DNA of 64,000 bases from Escherichia phage ManiMatter_Bas94 (PQ850617.1); one strand, 5' to 3'; counted from the stretch's first letter, positions 4,529 through 62,576 are shown. Program-made: numbers and translations. Notes: generated by a model from the letters alone, not told the origin.

Positions 4529-6673
4529 ATGTCTAGAGAATTAATGCCCAAATCTGGGATAATGATGCCTCATGTGGTAGTTACTAGAGATGCCGCAGTT
4601 GTGGGTGTGTCTACAGTTGATGGCGTGGCAGGTGCTGTTAATTTAACAGATAAATATCTACAAAAGTCTGATGCTGAAGCAACATATCAAACGAAAGCAG
4701 AAGGGGCTACTAAGCAATATGTAACCGATGCTATTAACCCTATTATGACAAATGCTCTGTTTAAAGATGACCCTTTTGTCAATAATGATACACCTATCCG
4801 CTCTGGTGGTGGTAATGGTGTTGAATCAGTGGATATGATTAAAGTTACCCCCGAGAACTCTATCAAACTAGGGAGTTATGCTTCTTCTGTTCAGGGGGTT
4901 GAGATTCACTCTGCTGGTCGTGTTCAGGTTGTTGATCAGAATGATGGTGGGGTAGAAACTAAATACCCTATCTATTCTAAGCGTTTCCGTCCTGAGATTG
5001 AAGATTTACCTTTTGCTGCAATCGGTTCTTATGTTAAGGATTCTCAAGGTCGTACTGTTGGTGTAACCCGTACTGGTATTAACTCTGATATCAAACAACT
5101 CACACAGAAGGTGACTTTCACTCAACCAGTTACTGTTCCTGATGCGGTTGGTGACTATGATGCAGTTACTTTGAGACAGCTTCGTAACAGTGGTGGCTCT
5201 GGCGGTCCTACCATGAGTGGTATCTCTAACTTTGGTATTGGTGATTTCCACTTACGTGATAGTCGAGCTTTCATCCCAGCTTTTGAAGTTCCCTCAGATG
5301 GTCAGCTTTTAAATCGTGCTGATTATCCTGACCTGTGGGCTTATGCTCAACTATTAACCCCTATTAGTGATTCTCTTTGGGTAGGAGATATTACCCAAAG
5401 AGGTAGATACTCCACAGGCGATGGCACCACCACTTTCCGTGTCCCTGACCGAAATGGTATTCAGCTTAACTCCCTTGCAGCTCTTTATGGACGAGGTGAT
5501 GGGGGTGCTTCCGCAGCTAATGGTATGGTTTTTGACTCTGCCGCTCCTAACATCTACGGTGACATTGGTGGTGTTGTAGCCTATGGTCAGACTGGTGCTA
5601 TTATGCGAGGTCAGGAAGAAACTGCACTAGCTCCACAACCAGTTACAGGAAACGGTGTATTAAGGGTAAGCTTGGATGCTTCCAAATCAAGTCCGATATA
5701 CGGTCGCAGTAACTCAGAAATCATGGGTCGTAACTTTGTAGGTGTTTGGACTATTCGTGCTCATGGTGGTTTTACTGCTGCTAACACATCTTGGTCAGTT
5801 ATTAATAGTGATGCAAACCGTCCTGCTGGTGGAACTCGAGCAACTAGTGGTTCTGTTGTTGCTGAATATAAAATAGGTTCAGAAGTAGAAGCCTCTACTA
5901 CGCTCCAAACTGATGCTTATATCGACGGAGCTTATTATGGGATTATCAATGTTTATAATAAAACCAAAGGAGTTACCAAGCAATTAGCTTTTGATGATTC
6001 TGGAACCCTGAACTCTGATAGGTATGCTGCTCGGTTTGGGACAATGATGGCTTGGAGCCAAACAGGAAGTCGCAGAGGGACGTTTTCTACAGACAACCAA
6101 GGGATCGGTGCTAACTACTCTTTTAACTCTATACTGAGTGCTTCCCAAGCATCCCAAGGTGGATACAAAACTACTACCCATGTAGGGATGATTCACAACG
6201 ATGCTGGAACTTTTGCTGATTCTTGTTGGCACGTAGCTGGGGATGAAGACAACAAATATGGTTGTCGTTTAACTCTTCGACCAAACAGAAATGAGCTTTT
6301 CTATTACACTTGGCAGCCTGGCGCATCAGGAGTTTACACTCTTGCTATGAATCCTGTGTCAGATGAAAGGTTGAAACACAACATTCAAGATCTCTCGCCT
6401 GATGAAGCAATTCGTGCGATTAAAGGTTTGGATTTCAAATCGTTTGTATATAACAACGACGAACAAGGAAGAACTCGTCGTGGTGTTATCGCACAGCAAG
6501 CAGAAAAGGTAGAACCTCTTTATGTTAAGACTCGTAGGTTCCATGACAACGACGGCGTAGAGCAAGAACAGAAAGAGCTGGACTCAGCTCCTATGCTCCT
6601 CGATACTATGCAAGTTGTTCAAGACCTGTTGAAACGTATTGAAGTTCTAGAAGCGAAGTTAGCAGAGAAGTGA
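4529..6673 (+). CDS. Tail fibre/spike with collar-like domain and C-terminal intramolecular chaperone (peptidase S74-like) domain
   Basis: GDGTTTFRVPDRNG collar-type motif; C-terminus SDERLKHNI...GVIAQQAEKVEPLYV matches the self-cleaving chaperone domain signature. Confidence 0.75.
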   Translation: MSRELMPKSGIMMPHVVVTRDAAVVGVSTVDGVAGAVNLTDKYLQKSDAEATYQTKAEGATKQYVTDAINPIMTNALFKDDPFVNNDTPIRSGGGNGVESVDMIKVTPENSIKLGSYASSVQGVEIHSAGRVQVVDQNDGGVETKYPIYSKRFRPEIEDLPFAAIGSYVKDSQGRTVGVTRTGINSDIKQLTQKVTFTQPVTVPDAVGDYDAVTLRQLRNSGGSGGPTMSGISNFGIGDFHLRDSRAFIPAFEVPSDGQLLNRADYPDLWAYAQLLTPISDSLWVGDITQRGRYSTGDGTTTFRVPDRNGIQLNSLAALYGRGDGGASAANGMVFDSAAPNIYGDIGGVVAYGQTGAIMRGQEETALAPQPVTGNGVLRVSLDASKSSPIYGRSNSEIMGRNFVGVWTIRAHGGFTAANTSWSVINSDANRPAGGTRATSGSVVAEYKIGSEVEASTTLQTDAYIDGAYYGIINVYNKTKGVTKQLAFDDSGTLNSDRYAARFGTMMAWSQTGSRRGTFSTDNQGIGANYSFNSILSASQASQGGYKTTTHVGMIHNDAGTFADSCWHVAGDEDNKYGCRLTLRPNRNELFYYTWQPGASGVYTLAMNPVSDERLKHNIQDLSPDEAIRAIKGLDFKSFVYNNDEQGRTRRGVIAQQAEKVEPLYVKTRRFHDNDGVEQEQKELDSAPMLLDTMQVVQDLLKRIEVLEAKLAEK

Positions 6674-54661: not shown

Positions 54662-54958
54662 TTACTTGTCGGCTTCAATCTCTTGATGCTTAGCTATAGC
54701 TACTCGCAAGTCCTCATTAGCACGAGTAAGGCGTAATACTTCATGGTTGAGATTCTGAAGACGCTTGTTTCTATCTTCAACTTGCGTAATAAGATCATTA
54801 AGAGTTGCTTTAACTTTCTCATTATACATCTCATCCACTCGGACTAGAGATTTGTACATTCTCTCCCAGCTTGCTGCTTTGTTCCTAAGGATAATAAATC
54901 CTATAACGCTGATAGTTAAACAGCTTACAAAAAGGAATTTATATATCTCTAAAGTCAT
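54662..54958 (-). CDS. Membrane-anchored coiled-coil protein
   Basis: N-terminal TM FLFVSCLTISVIGFIIL then heptad-rich region. Confidence 0.4.
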   Translation of the reverse strand: MTLEIYKFLFVSCLTISVIGFIILRNKAASWERMYKSLVRVDEMYNEKVKATLNDLITQVEDRNKRLQNLNHEVLRLTRANEDLRVAIAKHQEIEADK

Positions 54959-55157
54959 ATTATTTACCCTTTATCAGAGATTAAAAGTAATATTATTTAA
55001 GTAAGTTATATTTAGTAAACTTATTTTCTAAGAAATTTTCAAAGGGTCTATATACAGAGCATTACCCATAGTCCCAGAACACTACCATCTTTTTCAATAA
55101 ATTTACTAAGTGGTTGGTTTATAAAGGAATTTAGTTTGTCAAATCTGGCACTAGTGA

Positions 55158-55547
55158 TTATTCCCTAGAGCTATTATCGAACACTAAATCACCACAATAC
55201 ATAGGATTGGCATACCATTTTGGCACCCCTTCGCTCTTACTCTGAAAGTAAGTCCCACTGTACAGCGGAACATAATTCTTCTTAAGGGCACGTTTAGCAA
55301 GTCTCTCGCTTTCTCCAATGGCTTGCTTAGTCATCGGATTTTTATCACGAATCAGCTTTACATAACGTTTATAAGGTTTCTCCTGTTTTAATAGTACCGG
55401 AATCCACTCAAACTGGTTCTTTTGTCTTATCACCTGTTCAGCGGTCAGTTTTCGTTGGGCCATTCTATTTATCACGGTATCCGCAACCATAGCCTTACAT
55501 GCGGTTGGCTGATTCCCTGCCTCATAATAAATAGTCAATGTCAACAT
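55158..55547 (-). CDS. Cell-wall hydrolase-like protein (SleB/CwlJ-type)
   Basis: TIYYEAGNQPTACKAMVADTVINRMAQ resembles the family's N-terminal signature. Confidence 0.45.
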   Translation of the reverse strand: MLTLTIYYEAGNQPTACKAMVADTVINRMAQRKLTAEQVIRQKNQFEWIPVLLKQEKPYKRYVKLIRDKNPMTKQAIGESERLAKRALKKNYVPLYSGTYFQSKSEGVPKWYANPMYCGDLVFDNSSRE

Positions 55548-55801
55548 TAGCTGGGCCGTTGTTATCAGAACTTGCTACCTCCTCTCAGGATAAAACACCT
55601 TTCATGTATGCCTTACTCGAAGCCCTCCTTGTGGCTTTTAGTATGGATTGCTTAGCCTTATTCTTAGCTTCTTCTGTCATTCCATCAAAAACACCGAGCT
55701 TAGTTAGCTCCTTACTAGGAGGCTTATAGGAAGGGTTTAAAGCATTAGATAAATTATGACCATAGGCATGACCACGGCACAATAAAGAAGAAAGATTAAG
55801 C

Positions 55802-56167
55802 CTATGGATTTACACATTGACCGTTACCGGATGCGATTTCATTCATTGACTCATCAAACAAGGTTAGGGATGAGCGCATCAAGTGATCGACCGTGATTTG
55901 TTTACCGGTAGTTTCATTTACCAGTTGAATAGTTTTATCATATGATTGCACATGATCGAAATCATTTACATGCAAAATAATAACTTTAGGTGACTTTTTA
56001 CCAGTCGAATAGTTTTCTATCAAATAGGTGCACTGTAAACCTTCCACCGTATCAGGGGAAAATGTTGCAGCCTTTACACTACCCATAGCCGATAGGAGAA
56101 CGCCCAGCAGTAGAACGACCAGAAAAAAACCTACAACCATTTTAATGATGAATTTAATAAACCACAT
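55802..56167 (-). CDS. Membrane-anchored protein
   Basis: N-terminal TM VVGFFLVVLLLGVLL. Confidence 0.4.
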   Translation of the reverse strand: MWFIKFIIKMVVGFFLVVLLLGVLLSAMGSVKAATFSPDTVEGLQCTYLIENYSTGKKSPKVIILHVNDFDHVQSYDKTIQLVNETTGKQITVDHLMRSSLTLFDESMNEIASGNGQCVNP

Positions 56168-56269
56168 AACTATAAACCTTTTAATCAGAGGATGTAAGAA
56201 TAAAGCATATCAGCGACGAATAACGCCACTGTAACGACGAATAAGCAACGCCAGAAAAATCATTAAGCA

Positions 56270-56515
56270 TCATTTTAATCCGTGATTCAGTAGGTTCGCC
56301 AGTGATAGCCCACCGTCAAAATAAATTGAACGGAAGTCATCGCGGGTAATTTCAATCCCTACAGCAGATAACCAATCTTTGGCCTTTTTAAAATCCATGA
56401 CGCAGAAAGTAACGGTCGGGATTATTACATCACCAGCTTGCAAGCTAAACGCAATAAAAGTATCACACACAAAACAAGAAAAGCCGCTAGACAATTTAAC
56501 TTCTTTGATAGCCAT
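56270..56515 (-). CDS. Small Cys-containing protein, paralog A
   Basis: MAIKEVKLSSGFSCFVCDTFIAF...RDDFRSIYFDG; paralog at 61304-61555. Confidence 0.45.
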   Translation of the reverse strand: MAIKEVKLSSGFSCFVCDTFIAFSLQAGDVIIPTVTFCVMDFKKAKDWLSAVGIEITRDDFRSIYFDGGLSLANLLNHGLK

Positions 56516-56529
56516 AATTCTAACCCTTA

Positions 56530-57018
56530 TTATTTAGCACTGATGCAATTAGCTAGGTTGATGTGTACGGTATAAACCGCATTATTCTCACTATTGTAAA
56601 CCGTGGTGGCAAGCATTGATTCGTTTATCGGGCCATAACTGACTAGATTTGTAACAGCTTTCGCATGTTTGTAACGTTGTACAGTGCCAAATGTAACTAG
56701 TTCGGGATCGTTATCAGTGCGCTTTAATAGCAAATCATCATTGCCCTGATTATCTAGTGTTTTGGTACTAACGACCAGACCATCACGGGAAACGTTACTA
56801 AATTTAACCTTTAAGACGATTTGATTGGTGTCACTATCCGCACCGTTACAGATTAACCATTTGTTAGGTGCATCCTTCACGAACAAACTAGCGGCATTAT
56901 TAGCAGAAGCAGAACTAGCGATAGCGTTGTCAGAAAAAGAAGTTACCAGTGCACTGACACCGATGGCTGTAACCAGTGCATAACTTGCCAGATTAATAGT
57001 CTGCATTACTTTCGCCAT
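56530..57018 (-). CDS. Secreted protein candidate
   Basis: Signal-peptide-like INLASYALVTAIGVSALVTSFS. Confidence 0.4.
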   Translation of the reverse strand: MAKVMQTINLASYALVTAIGVSALVTSFSDNAIASSASANNAASLFVKDAPNKWLICNGADSDTNQIVLKVKFSNVSRDGLVVSTKTLDNQGNDDLLLKRTDNDPELVTFGTVQRYKHAKAVTNLVSYGPINESMLATTVYNSENNAVYTVHINLANCISAK

Positions 57019-57120
57019 TTTTGCTACCCCTTAGATAGAATCAATTAACTATTGCCACTTCTATAATACAAAGACGGTATTCAAGGTTACTACTCATACT
57101 TATACCTCCTGTTTTACGGG

Positions 57121-57148
57121 CATAAAAAAGCCCCAGCCGTAGCCGGGG
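57121..57148 (-). terminator. Rho-independent terminator (minus), distal of a tandem pair
   Basis: RNA hairpin GCCCCGGC-UACG-GCUGGGGC followed by UUUUUUAU. Confidence 0.65.
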
Positions 57149-57210
57149 CAAACCTGAAAGCAACGCATGACCGTTGCTATAAATACACTCGCAAATGCAC
57201 TTACAGCAAC

Positions 57211-57234
57211 GCAAAAAGCCGCTCAAAGGCGGCT
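57211..57234 (-). terminator. Rho-independent terminator (minus), proximal of a tandem pair
   Basis: Hairpin AGCCGCC/GGCGGCT followed by UUUUUG. Confidence 0.5.
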
Positions 57235-57314
57235 ATGTGGAAGCTTCAAATGGGGAGAGGGCACGACGCGGCAGAAAGAGCGTCATAGTACTAAAAGAGG
57301 GGGCTGCATTCCTA

Positions 57315-57758
57315 CTACTTAACCCTTGCTTCTTTGATGGGGTCAATATATTTTTCAACTCCCCACTTATGTTTGCTGTCTGCGTAGAATACATCAGGTG
57401 CGCATTGGCTTGTTTTAGGGAAGGCTTGCGGATCTTTGGTGCTCCCTTTAAACTTCTGTTTACCACGGGTGCGACCATTACAGAAGATTTCTAGTTTCTT
57501 CTCCTCTTCTGTTTTAGCTCCCCCGCTCTTTAATAGTGAACGTTTATGATCAGCTAACAGCAACGCATCAGCACGATGGGTACGATGGCCTACACGCTTG
57601 GGCACACTAGAAGGAATATGAGATTCAGCCTCAGCCCTTGCAGCACGACGCTTTAAACTACGCTTGCTAACATGATTAGTTGCCTTTGGTTTCTCTTTCT
57701 CCAATTCAGAAATAGAAAAACAACGCCCGCCCTTCATGCTGATTTTAGATTTAGCCAC
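57315..57758 (-). CDS. Basic hypothetical protein (early region)
   Basis: 147-aa Lys/Arg-rich ORF; preferred over overlapping 57233-57478. Confidence 0.4.
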   Translation of the reverse strand: MAKSKISMKGGRCFSISELEKEKPKATNHVSKRSLKRRAARAEAESHIPSSVPKRVGHRTHRADALLLADHKRSLLKSGGAKTEEEKKLEIFCNGRTRGKQKFKGSTKDPQAFPKTSQCAPDVFYADSKHKWGVEKYIDPIKEARVK

Positions 57759-57827
57759 TATCTTATTCCTTTCAGTGATAAGTTATATCGGGCAAGCCCA
57801 TCAAGGCGATAGGCTTGAACAAATAAC

Positions 57828-58037
57828 TCAACCAAGTAAACCAAATGATTTCCAACTACGCAGTAAGATCGTACCATCATCCATAGTTACGCATAATTTT
57901 AGTAGTCGCTTACTGGTACTGCTCACCGTTGTGATTCGTCCGGTTGTACATTTACCTTTATTGCTATAAAGATATATAACACGATGGCCTAACAAACGAG
58001 ATGGCGCTTTCTTAAATTCTGAAATGTTAGTGATCAT
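57828..58037 (-). CDS. Hypothetical protein
   Basis: 69-aa ORF. Confidence 0.35.
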   Translation of the reverse strand: MITNISEFKKAPSRLLGHRVIYLYSNKGKCTTGRITTVSSTSKRLLKLCVTMDDGTILLRSWKSFGLLG

Positions 58038-58255
58038 TATCCATATACCTTAACATGATTGATTCGACGTGAATGATGATAAGAAGACTCAACAGCCATT
58101 GCCTTTAATTCTTCTTTTCGTTGGTTAGTGTGTACAATATCCCAATGATTATGATCGTGTTGGCGCTGTAATATCTTACTACATTTGCGATGGTTTCCCG
58201 TGCTGCGACGTTTCTCACAAATAGGACACTTACCAAAATCATTACTGAATATCAT
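58037..58255 (-). CDS. Zinc-finger-like small protein
   Basis: CPICEKRRSTGNHRKC plus His cluster. Confidence 0.35.
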   Translation of the reverse strand: MIFSNDFGKCPICEKRRSTGNHRKCSKILQRQHDHNHWDIVHTNQRKEELKAMAVESSYHHSRRINHVKVYG

Positions 58256-58479
58256 TTTCTCAATCCTAACTTTCTTAAGACACGGCCTAACGTTGTTTCT
58301 TGGGTGATAATATACCTGACCGCTTCACGTTCCAACGTTTCAATCTTCATTGGCGACGGATACCATTCACCGGTAAGCATACACCTATACTCAACGCCAT
58401 ACTTTTTAGATAGGCGGTAATGTTGACCGTTGACAAGGTTCCTATAAATCGTGGTATGCGTCGTTAACATAATCGTCAC
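58252..58479 (-). CDS. Hypothetical protein
   Basis: 75-aa ORF. Confidence 0.35.
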   Translation of the reverse strand: MTIMLTTHTTIYRNLVNGQHYRLSKKYGVEYRCMLTGEWYPSPMKIETLEREAVRYIITQETTLGRVLRKLGLRK

Positions 58480-58582
58480 CTTTGATTAGATTCTTTGATT
58501 AGTACACTGAATCAATGCACTGATAAAAGAAAAGGCGCTACCCGTTAAAGATAGCGCCTCATGTTTATTTAGATTGTCTTAC

Positions 58583-59491
58583 TTATGCCGCCTGACGTGC
58601 CGCCATAATTTCAGCCGCTTTGCGCAATACTTCTTCCTCTTCTGCTTTCGCCGCTTGTTCGGTACGGGTAGCAACCGTTGAAGAGATACGACCGCGCAGA
58701 CTTTCTAACTTCTCTTGCATAGCTGCGATGGTCTTTTCCATTTCATCAGCGTATGAGTCCAGTGATTCTAGTTCCTTGCTCGATGCGTTCATCAGATAAT
58801 CATCAGAGATCGCTACCGTTGAGGCCGTCACTTTCTTGATGAGTGAGTCGAATGACTTCTTAACCTTGCCGACTTCTTCACTTAAGGCAATAGTGTTATC
58901 ACTGGTAGCGCCGTTGCGCTCATCGGCCAACAATTTTGCTTCAATACGGATTGCATTCAAGCGTTCAACTAAAGCGTAAATATCCTGATTAAAATCTTCC
59001 TTGTTTTTCGCCGGTATTTGAAGGTGTGCCGCCACGTTGTCATTGCAACCTTTGTAGAAGTTAGGATTATCCACTTCAATTGCACGACCTAAAGCAAAAT
59101 TCTCGAAAGCATTCGACCAGCGAGCGCGGTTTTGTTCCATTTTGGCCTTAATTTGCGCTTCTTTCGCATCTTCTTTCGCTTTCGCTTCACCTTCCAGATT
59201 AATCCATTTTTTACGACCGTTCGCCGCCTCGGTATTAAACTTGATTGGAGTAAGGAAAGTAATTGCAGTGGCAATAACATCCATATCGCGGAAACGTTCA
59301 GTTAACAGAAAATCGACCGCCGACTGCAATACATCTAATTTCTTGCCGTTGCTGCGGAAGTGCTGCAAATGACCTAACAGAAAGTTAGAAACATCTTGCT
59401 TAATCGCCGCGTTATTGCTACGGATGTTGTTTGCCAGTGCATTGAAACCGGATTCTTTTACCAGATTAAAAACTTTAGCCATGATATTCAC
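58583..59491 (-). CDS. Hypothetical early protein (302 aa, helical)
   Basis: First long ORF downstream of the consensus promoter cluster. Confidence 0.45.
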   Translation of the reverse strand: MNIMAKVFNLVKESGFNALANNIRSNNAAIKQDVSNFLLGHLQHFRSNGKKLDVLQSAVDFLLTERFRDMDVIATAITFLTPIKFNTEAANGRKKWINLEGEAKAKEDAKEAQIKAKMEQNRARWSNAFENFALGRAIEVDNPNFYKGCNDNVAAHLQIPAKNKEDFNQDIYALVERLNAIRIEAKLLADERNGATSDNTIALSEEVGKVKKSFDSLIKKVTASTVAISDDYLMNASSKELESLDSYADEMEKTIAAMQEKLESLRGRISSTVATRTEQAAKAEEEEVLRKAAEIMAARQAA

Positions 59492-60303
59492 CTTTCAATT
59501 ATAAGGGCACTATTGCCCCGCTCGCTATGAGCTTTCAAGCCATTATTGACTTAACTATAAACGCTCACTATAAACGCTTATAGGTAAGCGGAGCGGTCTT
59601 ATCAGGAGTTAACCTTGCCGCTCCCTTATCCGTGATGTTTCATCTGGTATCTTTAATTAGTCGCTATAAATAAAGCCGACTTGATAGCGATGATCAATCA
59701 TCACAATAAGGCCAGTGTGTCCGACTCAATTTAATTACATTACTGTAACCGTCGGCAATATCGTTTACTCTGCTTTCGCTCCCGCCTATCCTTTTGTATC
59801 AGCTCTTTATCGCTAGTCATCGCCCACTACGGGATACTATTGCGAAAAAGTCACTAACCGCCTAATATTCCGGCGTTTTATATCTTTCGGCAAGTTTACT
59901 ACACAACACGACTATGTACTTTCATCCTAAGACGAATATCAAGCCGCTCACGTCGTAAACGTTCACACTAAAACCTTATTGTTAAATAGCAATTTGCCAC
60001 TTTTTAACCGTTCGCCGCCGCCCTCAATTGGGCGTTAATTCGTCGGGATTGTCTACCCTGATCAGTTTCTTTCATTGTAGCGCCTTTTTAGCTAGGCCGC
60101 CGCTACCCATTAACCGTGGGCGATTAGTTTTAGCCTTGCGTGCACTCAATGATTCCGCTTACCAGTGGTGACGTTTCCAGTTAAGGGATTGTAAAGCTGT
60201 TTACCCTGATAATTTAGGGAGCTTTACGCCGTTTTATCTGGTATGTTTTCCGATGGTCATTATCATCCAACATATGCAACCGATATAGGGGAACGTTTAA
60301 ATT

Positions 60304-60315
60304 ATTAAAGAGCGG
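60304..60315. repeat. TTTAAAGAGCGG motif, copy 1 of 5
   Basis: Others at 60542-60555, 60677-60690, 60789-60801, 61009-61022. Confidence 0.6.
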
Positions 60316-60573
60316 TAAATCTGTCAGTGTGCTTTCTCACACTACGCAACTGTTAGCCGTTGTGTCGCTTTTTCACTGAAGCGGTGATTTGCTTAGTGAC
60401 TTGTGCTTATTATGAATCATTTTGCTTCCGCCGTCAATCACTTTTTTAATCTTTTTTCATCGTTCCCGCTGTTGGGAAGATATATCAATCAGCTATATTT
60501 GATTGAAGATTAAGCGATCAGGCTTGAACTTATGATTCATATTTTTAAAGAGCGGTTTTTCTGACTTGTGATC

Positions 60574-60602
60574 AGTATAAACTTACTTTCTCACGTTGTC
60601 AA
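60574..60602 (-). promoter_or_regulatory. Sigma70-type promoter P1
   Basis: Minus strand TTGACA-N17-TATACT. Confidence 0.55.
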
Positions 60603-60721
60603 TCTCTTTTTTATCGTCTTCTTTGATTCTCTTCCCTTATCTCGCGTGAATCTATGCGAAAGGGCAAGACGATAAATTTTTAAAGAGCGGGATTTTTTAA
60701 GTCATCGCTGACCTTGTACAC

Positions 60722-60801
60722 TCATTATAGGTTAGGCTTTTTCCGGTGTCAATATTCTTTTTCAGAATATTTTCACTTTCTAGCCTGATTTTTAAAGAGC
60801 G
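60722..60801. repeat. ~80-bp direct repeat, copy 1
   Basis: CATTATAGGTTAGGCTTTT...TTTTCACTTTCTAGCCT..TTTTTAAAGAGCG, ~90% identical to 60942-61022. Confidence 0.7.
60724..60752 (-). promoter_or_regulatory. Sigma70-type consensus promoter P2
   Basis: Minus strand TTGACA-N17-TATAAT, AT-rich upstream; inside 80-bp repeat. Confidence 0.65.
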
Positions 60802-60941
60802 TTTAAAGCTGTATGGCTCCCATAACACCACTTGATGATCAGTTAACCTACGATCATTCAGGACTATAGTACCCGCTTAGTTGCGTCTGACTTGCTTCAC
60901 TCACTAGGGAGTTACTTGAGCGGTCATCTTGTCTTTCTAAG

Positions 60942-61022
60942 CTCATTATAGGTTAGGCTTTTCAGTTGTCAAATACTTTTTCAAGTATTTTTTCACTTTC
61001 TAGCCTACTTTTTAAAGAGCGG
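60942..61022. repeat. ~80-bp direct repeat, copy 2
   Basis: See copy 1. Confidence 0.7.
60945..60972 (-). promoter_or_regulatory. Sigma70-type consensus promoter P3
   Basis: Minus strand TTGACA-N16-TATAAT; second copy of 80-bp repeat. Confidence 0.65.
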
Positions 61023-61303
61023 GGCAATTTCTTGCCTTGTATGTTTTACATCGTACCCGATGGAAATGAGTATACGCGAGCCTTTAGAAAGTGCAATAGG
61101 GGAAAGCAAATTATTTTAAACTTTTTCACTGTAGGGAAGATAGAAGAGCGGGCTGACGTGGTACACCATAGGAAACGGCTTGTAAAGCGATAATAGGCGG
61201 CCTAAAACGCACCACAATGAGCTAAAAGGGGATAAGGTATATAATCACCTTAGAAAAGAAAAAAGCGCCTTTATTGGCGCTTATAGGGATGATTTAAAGT
61301 TTT

Positions 61304-61555
61304 TCACCATTTAGGCAAATCTGCATCAAGTAGGCCAGCAAGTGACAATTCACCGTCAACATATATCGATCTGAAATCGTCCCGATTGATATCAATGCGT
61401 ACCATTTGCAGCCATTTTTTGGCCTCGTTAAAGCTCATTGAGCAAAAAGAAACCGTGGGCAATATTACGTCACCATTTTGCAAGCCGAACGCGATAAAAG
61501 TATCGCACACGCAGCAAGAAAGACCGTTCGACAATTTAATCTCTTTGATACTCAT
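61304..61555 (-). CDS. Small Cys-containing protein, paralog B
   Basis: MSIKEIKLSNGLSCCVCDTFIAF...RDDFRSIYVDG; ~55-60% identical to 56270-56515. Confidence 0.45.
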   Translation of the reverse strand: MSIKEIKLSNGLSCCVCDTFIAFGLQNGDVILPTVSFCSMSFNEAKKWLQMVRIDINRDDFRSIYVDGELSLAGLLDADLPKW

Positions 61556-61582
61556 GTTTTTACACTCCCAAAGATAGGTTAT

Positions 61583-61729
61583 TTATTTGCTGAATTTAGC
61601 GCCATAAAACTTACTAATCTTGTTTTTCGGGCTTAACTTGCTATCAGTGAGCGCTTCAATCACTTCACAAACGATCAGGGCAAGTAAAGGAAAAACTACA
61701 GCCATAAACATCATTACCAGAATAATCAT
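61583..61729 (-). CDS. Small hydrophobic protein (48 aa), tentative
   Basis: MIILVMMFMAVVFPLLALIV...; below track threshold. Confidence 0.25.
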   Translation of the reverse strand: MIILVMMFMAVVFPLLALIVCEVIEALTDSKLSPKNKISKFYGAKFSK

Positions 61730-62172
61730 TTCTATCACTCCAATCACTCAATCCGTAGGCTTCAATTTACTACTACTTAATAAGGAAAGCAATCACCACG
61801 GGCAAAATACTACCCGCAGAACAGACCACGGGGGAACGTGCCAGATAATGCGGTAATAATATTCCACTTAAATAATTAGTTAACTATTAATAACATTACT
61901 CAAACATCAAACGTTAAAAGAAAAGAATAACAGAACGCTGAAAAAGAAAAGAATAAAAAGAAATATAATAAACATCAAACATAATCTTTCCACTTAATTA
62001 ATGCATATATCATTATTGCACTCATAATTATCACCATTGAAACTATTTACATTCAAACTATGGGGGATGGCGATAGTTGCTATCCGGTATTAATAGCCTC
62101 AATATAATCAAGCATTAACAATGGCTAGCCTTTCCCATACTCTTTTAAGGGGCACTAAATAAACGGGTATTA

Positions 62173-62180
62173 AATGTATA
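62173..62180 (+). promoter_or_regulatory. AATGTATA element, plus orientation
   Basis: TAAATGTATAGG in divergent intergenic region. Confidence 0.3.
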
Positions 62181-62411
62181 GGATGTTATACACGGGGCAA
62201 TAACTGCACGGGATAGGGCACGGGAAAAGTGGAACGTTGAAAAAGAAGGTAAAGGCATTGCCAATACCCATTTTTTAAATGAGGACTCCCCCTTTTTAAC
62301 AATTCGTCGCGGAGCGCCTAGCCCCACTCGGTCAAATCAGAATTTTAAACCCTTATATATAAGCATATGCCCCAACTTTATGTTGTGGATTTAAGCTTGA
62401 GGAACTATTTA

Positions 62412-62576
62412 ATGAATCTAATTAAAGTGTTTAGACGAATGAAATGTAAGCACAATTACTATCCTCTTCGTAAAGCTTACGGGGATGAAAGAATACACGG
62501 GCTATACTTATCAACATGGAGGTGTAGGGAATGTGGTAAGTTAAAGTTTAGTGAATGGGTAGACAGACCGGGATGA
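62412..62576 (+). CDS. Zinc-ribbon small protein
   Basis: ATG 62412 with SD GAGGAA; CKHNY...CRECGK. Confidence 0.4.
   Translation: MNLIKVFRRMKCKHNYYPLRKAYGDERIHGLYLSTWRCRECGKLKFSEWVDRPG

Follow-up and report, generated by a model that had tools for sequence, protein, structure and literature searches.

Why does one phage hold, at two places in its early region, two versions of a gene that its relatives carry once? The genome that raises this question is that of Escherichia phage ManiMatter_Bas94 (PQ850617.1), of which we analysed a stretch of 64,000 nucleotides (hereafter the window; one strand, 5′ to 3′). The genes are two small minus-strand open reading frames (ORFs), copy A at 56270–56515 (81 amino acids (aa)) and copy B at 61304–61555 (83 aa), both found exactly where a preliminary description of the sequence had placed them. 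We consider it likely that the two are functional, anciently diverged alleles of gp127, normally a single-copy gene, and that they were brought together by cassette mosaicism.

Two members of the gp127 family

Sequence comparison establishes both copies as members of the phiEco32 gp127 (phi32_127) family, PHROG 14176, which hmmscan matches over their full length (copy A, E = 2.2e-43; copy B, E = 4e-42), the matches spanning A residues 1–80 and B residues 1–83 of the 87-position profile. Both fall within the family length of 79–89 aa and lie in the leftward early region, beside a homologue of the C-terminal domain of gp128 or a small hydrophobic ORF, as family members do. In alignments that include both copies, all of the invariant family residues, about 20 in number, are kept in each (columns G11, S13, I21, F23, G28, P33, F37, C38, I56, R58, D60, F61, Y65, G68, L70, S71, L72, L75 and L80), and the two motifs singled out in the preliminary description, SCxVCDTFIAF and RDDFRSIY(F/V)DG, are present in both. 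Aligned with each other by BLASTP, the proteins are identical at 55 of 80 residues (69%; 79% positives, gapless, E = 5e-40), which bears out the homology first proposed, at a higher figure than the ~55–60% identity then given. Their DNA is 70% identical over 240 nt; this similarity ends at the borders of the coding sequences, and the flanks are unrelated.

Among all six-frame ORFs of the window, the family hidden Markov model (HMM) matched only copies A and B (E = 2e-46 and 4e-45) and found no third copy, the next match having E = 3. The one unusual point about the window, and not one by which the family is defined, is that it holds two members where the habit is one per genome. With either copy as query, tblastn found the gene in 76 related phage records, at a single place in each; the only case with '2 places', SGF2, is one gene cut by the start of the record. 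The neighbouring gp124 is present in 97 records. According to the supplement of PMC8948821, phi32_127 is among the 69 genes common to the phiEco32 subgroup and has no homologue in 7-11 or GAP52. The gene is thus shared across the subgroup, fixed in presence and, as set out below, free in position.

Compared with phiEco32 gp127 (CDS124 of SU10), the window proteins show homology over their full length at 57–74% aa identity, the same size, the invariant residues, a location in the early leftward region and a homologue of the gp128 C-terminal domain as the usual neighbour. They differ from these relatives in that there are two members at two sites and in that copy A lacks the last 7 residues. In a collection of 5.8 billion proteins the family forms 81 clusters, all of them close relatives, and all but one fragment are 79–89 aa long. 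A scan of IMG/VR matched four isolates, all already known, and exact-sequence look-ups of the two window proteins returned no record.

In 17 Suseptimavirus and related records without gp127, a 70-aa protein stands in its position (for example EK010 ORF02, 1604–1816). Against the gp127 core, hhalign gives the EK010 protein E = 5e-4 and 28% identity over 54 columns at a probability of 31%, values that lend marginal support to the proposal that it is probably a diverged gp127 counterpart. Like gp127, it stands between the gp128 homologue, which it follows directly, and the gp126 homologue, and it has the hairpin and helices of the core, GLSLxxLL among them; unlike gp127, it has neither of the first two strands, and with them the CxxC region is missing.

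Two sites, two cassettes and a mosaic origin

The window region matches phiEco32-like E. coli podophages (Gordonclarkvirinae, Kuravirus) and is closest to the 67–69-kb clade. An 8-kb query is 95% identical to Bas92 over 91% of its length, 95% to Bas93 over 81% and 93.5% to LAMP over 69%. Comparison of the coordinates of gp127 and gp124 in each phage reveals two alternative sites. Site B, upstream of gp124 and the ORF-free gap, is occupied in 41 phages, including phiEco32, SU10, LAMP and Bas93; site A lies downstream, between gp120 and gp117, and is occupied in only three (Bas92, EcoN5 and IMEP8). None of these 44 site-typed phages has both sites filled, whereas the window has both. The geometry first described holds: one copy is part of the leftward block of early genes, and its partner lies upstream of the cluster of early promoters. 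Copy B is ~330 nt upstream of the first early promoter and copy A ~3.9 kb downstream of the last.

Copy A is part of a cassette of 1519 bp (55584–57102), delimited by blastn maps, between the gp120-like and gp117-like genes. Cassette A comprises a 17-codon ORF, ORF162, copy A, a 29-aa ORF, a gp125 homologue and part of o65; it is present in Bas92 (99–100% identical), EcoN5 and IMEP8 and not in Bas93 or LAMP. An 8-bp TACCTCCT stands at its left junction (55576–55583) and again at its right junction (57103–57110). On the minus strand it reads AGGAGGTA, a Shine–Dalgarno sequence, and it is found once at the empty site A of Bas93 and LAMP. ORF162 (56530–57018, minus) is homologous to the last 160 aa of phiEco32 gp128 (tblastn, 70% to phi32_128; PHROG 21410/36409), has a signal-peptide-like N terminus by hydropathy and is the usual upstream neighbour of gp127. 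The gp125 homologue (121 aa; 55802–56167, minus; 92% to phi32_125; PHROG 13168) has an N-terminal transmembrane segment (KD19 2.93) and goes by the name 'terminase' in databases. The short tail of copy A results from a 306-bp deletion relative to EcoN5 (window 56168–56275; EcoN5 locus 5700–6005), which removed the gp126 homologue and shortened copy A by 7 codons at its end. The deletion is shared by Bas92, and the 29-aa ORF overlaps the new stop codon of copy A. In many phages a member of the gp126 family adjoins gp127 (EcoN5 locus L009, 5720–5962; L003, 2085–2366; EK010 L014, 1819–2091).

Cassette B is smaller, ~514 bp (61300–61813), and consists of a small hydrophobic ORF and copy B. It is 92–96% identical to Bas93 and LAMP and is not found in Bas92, EcoN5 or IMEP8; when empty, its site measures 17 bp in Bas92 and ~58 bp in EcoN5. 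The hydrophobic ORF, o54 (61583–61747, minus; PHROG 7482), lies upstream of copy B, is transmembrane-like (KD19 3.09) and is 91–93% identical to its Bas93 and LAMP counterparts, with a likely ATG start at 61729. We considered whether o54 is a remnant of the gp128 N terminus and found no similarity between them. In phiEco32, site B holds gp128–gp127–gp126–gp125, and metagenomic contigs show a further variant of this site, composed of a promoter, a small ORF, ORF163 and gp127.

The preliminary description took the two copies for paralogues that had diverged within this genome, and this does not hold: the nearest relative of each is the sole gp127 of a different phage. For copy A, identity is 100% to the protein of Bas92, 89% to P0001 and 83% to EcoN5; for copy B, it is 96% to that of Bas93, 95% to LAMP and 84% to O18-011 and MN05. 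Set against the 69% that A and B share with each other, and with their high synonymous divergence, these values are not those of in-paralogues. The alignment and substitution analysis that had been proposed gives a synonymous divergence (dS) between A and B of ~1.5, which is saturated, a non-synonymous divergence (dN) of 0.24 and a dN/dS of 0.15 (Nei–Gojobori), a ratio that establishes purifying selection at the level of the sequence. With both ORFs intact, the nucleotide identity reported above and a dS of this size, neither copy is an assembly duplicate, and chance and assembly duplication are excluded as the origin of the pair. Because dS is so high and dN/dS so low, A and B appear to be old alleles joined by recombination, with no recent duplication. 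Recent gene conversion between them was considered and rejected, since third-codon-position identity is low in every one of three codon blocks (66%, 40% and 41%).

Mosaicism is evident at two further scales. Between the two sites, segments of differing identity to Bas92, Bas93 and LAMP alternate in a fine patchwork, and across 82 family sequences the N-terminal, middle and C-terminal block types occur in 9 combinations, so that by its block structure the gp127 gene is itself an intragenic mosaic. The mosaic origin of the pair follows from these comparisons; the route to it can be proposed as follows. gp127 would travel in a small cassette for which the leftward early region offers two alternative sites. 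A Bas92-like lineage would have supplied the filled site A, and a LAMP/Bas93-like lineage the mini-cassette that fills site B. Phages of the A type and the B type would then have been crossed, probably by homologous recombination within the ~3.5 kb shared between the sites, to give a phage holding two alleles, whose main differences are in helix 2 and the C-terminal tail.

The finding is ordinary in kind, a case of phage cassette mosaicism involving an orphan early gene, and stands alone in the family by its two copies. As in the modular or 'moron' cassettes of lambdoid and T7-group early regions, the unit is present, absent or relocated between close relatives; its junctions lie at short conserved sequences, here the 8-bp Shine–Dalgarno repeat; and it is small, with its own promoter and terminator, as reported for SU10. 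Unlike moron-type cassettes, gp127 is no accessory extra: it is kept in every Kuravirus record examined and is free in position alone. Together with Bas92 (A only), Bas93 (B only; both from the BASEL collection) and LAMP (B only), the two-allele phage makes a ready genetic series for gp127.

Competing explanations, expression and function

Several observations weigh against a pair of functional alleles united by recombination. The sequence alone is compatible with a chimeric assembly of two co-cultured phages. The cassette promoter of the SU10/phiEco32 type is degenerate at site B of the window (best match 7/12), and the cassette promoter at site A is damaged relative to EcoN5: its −35 element is weakened in EcoN5 and IMEP8, with further damage in the window and Bas92. 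Copy A, inside the main early operon, stands behind two or three terminator-like hairpins, two of which lie between the gp120-like gene and cassette A (57234–57217 and 57149–57130, minus), and read-through would be needed to reach it. Finally, an exhaustive profile search of 1.84 billion representatives gave no credible distant relative. It returned one true gp127-family cluster and four giant immunoglobulin (Ig)-repeat proteins, which we judged to be matches to a short β-strand motif in InlK_D3/HYR repeats (profile positions 13–50), not homologues. These Ig-like giants (P0082–P0085) are bacterial surface proteins of 2400–4300 aa, with whole-protein E values of 2e-9 to 7e-4 against the gp127 profile.

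A chimeric assembly, in which A-type and B-type phages from one sample were joined into one sequence, would leave no two-copy state to explain. Co-occurrence of the two types is real, the A-type Bas92 and the B-type Bas93 both coming from the Birsig river in Switzerland; the two copies occur together in 0 of 76 records; and an assembler could go astray in the 3.5 kb between the sites, where the sequence is near-identical. However, cassette B is just 92–96% identical to that of Bas93 and LAMP, and the patchwork of identities is typical of natural recombinants and unlike a simple two-parent join. For packaging, 0.5 kb more is no obstacle in a genome of 67–69 kb, and mosaicism is pervasive in gp127 and its region. 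On balance, we regard a chimera as improbable.

A second alternative is that one of the copies is redundant, silent or decaying and in effect a pseudogene. The 306-bp deletion has cost copy A 7 C-terminal codons, the promoter of its cassette is damaged, that of copy B is degenerate, and in relatives one copy suffices. Yet both ORFs are intact with all invariant residues, the lost tail is variable across the family and of low confidence in structural models, and each arrangement is found elsewhere on its own: Bas92 has the shortened copy A and no other, and LAMP and Bas93 have gp127 only in the copy B arrangement. A pseudogene is accordingly quite unlikely in our view. That each arrangement elsewhere carries the sole copy of a widely retained gene is also the best argument for expression, and from it we infer that both copies are expressed.

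Other features of the two loci bear on how they would be read. Each copy has a plausible Shine–Dalgarno sequence. Directly 3′ of copy B is an intrinsic-terminator-like hairpin with a T-run (61263–61282, minus), which corresponds to the terminator reported after the gp128–125 unit of SU10 (S2 table, PMC4281155). In SU10, 'like phiEco32', one promoter was described upstream of the gp128 homologue, a terminator after the gp125 homologue and, within the spacer, three promoters (PMC4281155). By that description, the SU10/phiEco32 gp128–125 unit has a sigma-70 promoter and a terminator and is classed as early; the early timing used here is that of the summaries in PMC8948821 and PMC4281155. On the minus strand, no gp36-type middle/late promoter motif (AATGTATA) was found near either copy.

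Duplication inside this genome, with the copies then diverging to new functions, would account for two copies at 69% identity in one genome and for their sharing the rarer N-terminal CxxC/DTFIAF block type. It is very unlikely: for A as for B, the single gene of another phage is a far nearer match than the partner copy; dS is saturated, against 95–100% identity to relatives in the flanking genes; and both sites exist in other phages, each filled on its own. We therefore retain the reading of two old alleles assembled by mosaicism, and turn to what their product might be.

Confident AlphaFold2 models of the two proteins have the same topology (copy A, predicted local distance difference test (pLDDT) 85.6 and predicted template modelling score (pTM) 0.76; copy B, pLDDT 84.4 and pTM 0.73), with four strands (residues 4–33) followed by four helices and a low-confidence tail. 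The invariant residues cluster in the C-terminal helices (R58, D60, F61, Y65, G68, L70, S71, L72 and L75), where they make up the motif RDDF-SIY-DG-LSL--LL, and strands 3–4 and helix 2 are the variable parts. The proteins are small, soluble and mildly acidic (isoelectric point (pI) 5.60 for A and 4.62 for B; net charge −1.4 and −3.5), and no transmembrane segment was found in either. Neither copy gave a fold match, Foldseek against BFVD being significant for a family member only, and neither sequence nor fold searches linked either of them to a characterised protein. Weak Foldseek matches were to Kuravirus proteins of 73–90 aa (E = 0.01–0.2, template modelling (TM) score 0.5–0.65). Between gp126 and the gp127 model, Foldseek gives E = 0.02–0.16 and a TM score of ~0.55, and hhalign a probability of 0.8%, which is below significance; gp126 is possibly a very distant tandem paralogue of gp127.

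The SCxVC of both copies could suggest a CxxC zinc or redox protein, and the GenBank/PHROG names 'polymerase' and 'DNA polymerase B region' a fragment akin to DNA polymerase B. Either is hardly credible. Of 82 members, 54 have Gly in place of the second Cys and 7 have Val in place of the first. No Pfam polymerase domain was matched at E ≤ 1 in either copy; the best matches, EF-hand_10 (E = 0.014) and DUF1947 (E = 0.099), fall short of their cut-offs. The protein is just 81–83 aa long, has no polymerase among its significant fold matches and sits among tiny neighbours with equally implausible labels. The first Cys is present in 75 of 82 family members and the second in 26 of 82, which establishes from the alignment that the CxxC is not conserved; only Cys38 is invariant, and the preliminary label 'Cys-containing' names no family trait. 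A zinc ribbon or treble clef was likewise rejected, as it requires four ligands in two knuckles and there is a single, non-conserved CxxC. Spurious-looking labels also occur at 54662–56167 in the window and in Bas92 and Bas93, among them 'terminase' (121 aa), 'DNA helicase' (98 aa) and 'tail protein' (41–44 aa); such labels on tiny early proteins trace to PHROG names. A misleading 'polymerase' annotation, spread through dozens of records, is hereby corrected.

By exclusion and from its context, our best guess is that gp127 is a small early factor that binds a host or phage protein and is neither an enzyme nor a metal-binder. A role in host takeover or anti-defence, as first suggested, is plausible. 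DNA mimics have an elongated helical mimic fold and a very acidic surface, with a pI of about 4 or below and a large negative charge. We considered and rejected a DNA-mimic anti-restriction protein of the Ocr/ArdA type, as the pI and charge of gp127 are too mild, its fold is α/β with a four-stranded sheet, and there is no fold match. Neither copy matched the known anti-phage defence families of PADLOC. The usual neighbours of gp127 are predicted to be envelope proteins, gp128C having a signal-peptide-like N terminus and gp125 and o54 transmembrane-like segments; an obligate partnership of gp127 with gp128C is unlikely, because LAMP and Bas93 have gp127 without gp128C.

T7 Ocr (gp0.3) and phiEco32 gp79 are comparable in being small, encoded in the early region in a sigma-70 context and non-enzymatic-looking; gp127 differs in having no sequence or fold similarity to them and in not being strongly acidic. 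By the summary in PMC12276001, gp36 and gp79 alone were identified with RNA polymerase purified from phiEco32-infected cells. There is also a likeness of position. From homology to the 193-bp terminal repeat of phiEco32, the physical genome end is probably near 62127–62319, which would make copy B the gene nearest the right end, ~0.6 kb from it; T7 0.3 is likewise at the leading end.

More tentatively still, gp127 might be a hypervariable early factor directed at a polymorphic host target, for example in defence or takeover, in which the shuffled middle and C-terminal blocks set specificity and two alleles widen host range; we hold this to be a minor possibility. The two copies differ in exactly these blocks, copy A being of type M2/C2 and copy B of type M1/C1. 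The proposal fits the mosaic alleles, the retention of the gene in every Kuravirus record examined and its early position, none of which demonstrates it. If it were true, the two alleles would cover two target variants, and the genome would be a natural two-specificity experiment.

Promoters, boxA motifs and a leader RNA between the copies

The gene pair itself is of modest value, and the larger pay-off may lie between the copies, where an ORF-free stretch of 1.8 kb is found. Four near-consensus sigma-70 early promoters, with 10–12 of 12 matches, lie there on the minus strand (60972–60945, 60752–60724, 60602–60574 and 60437–60409). They are themselves diverged direct repeats of promoter units, for example a 63-nt unit (60739–60801 and 60959–61021) and a 52-nt unit (60397–60448 and 60562–60613). 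The same strand carries five boxA-like CGCTCTTTAA(A/T)AA motifs (61021–61012, 60801–60792, 60689–60680, 60554–60545 and 60314–60305), placed such that each promoter has one copy downstream and one more copy stands upstream of the first promoter. In the window as a whole, CGCTCTTTAA(A/T)AA occurs 6 times against 0.14 expected, and four to five sense copies are found at the same place in every relative examined, some of them reading CGCTCTTTAACAAT.

We take the motif to be the core of the E. coli rrn boxA (TGCTCTTTAACAA). All 5426 E. coli genomes contain CACTGCTCTTTAACAATTT..., with a median of 7 places per genome, ~100 nt upstream of 16S rRNA. This suggests, from motif and placement, Nus-factor (boxA) antitermination of early transcription. 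In rRNA operons and CRISPR arrays, boxA/Nus antitermination protects from Rho (PMC7665894); here it would shield a long untranslated early leader from Rho.

That leader extends for 909 nt from the last early promoter to the start codon of the gp124-like gene (60400–59492, minus) and contains no minus-strand ORF of at least 45 aa. It is 83–95% identical across 11 relatives, including a Suseptimavirus, and has an RNA fold z-score of −4.95. The sense strand folds at −253.6 kcal/mol, compared with −197.2 kcal/mol for the reverse complement, and has 29 G–U pairs. The consensus structure comprises 256 pairs in 43 helices, with 98.5% of cells paired. Compensatory double changes occur at 52 pairs, compared with 21.3 ± 3.0 in shuffled alignments (none of 500 reached the observed value) and 3–10 in slid controls, a comparison in which the structure favours itself somewhat, having been predicted from the same alignment. 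A search of window positions 55000–62500 against Rfam gave no match at E ≤ 1. In the searchable literature we found nothing that links a non-coding RNA to phiEco32-like phages, and no mention of early boxA antitermination or a large leader RNA in this phage group. The leader may be a new large structured phage RNA, for which covariation makes it a candidate. Every phage of the group that we compared has several very strong early promoters, rrn-type boxA motifs and ~0.9 kb of untranslated RNA with a conserved structure, a combination that points to Nus-factor antitermination and possibly to a new large structured phage RNA.

Two observations concern the borders of the region. On the plus strand, a gp36 sigma-factor promoter motif, AATGTATA, lies at 62173–62180; the first rightward gene (62367) follows ~190 nt downstream. 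At the other end, the gp117-like early protein (129 aa; 55158–55547, minus) matches the Pfam cell-wall hydrolase domain Hydrolase_2 above cut-off (E = 6.9e-8), and a wall hydrolase domain is unexpected in the early region.

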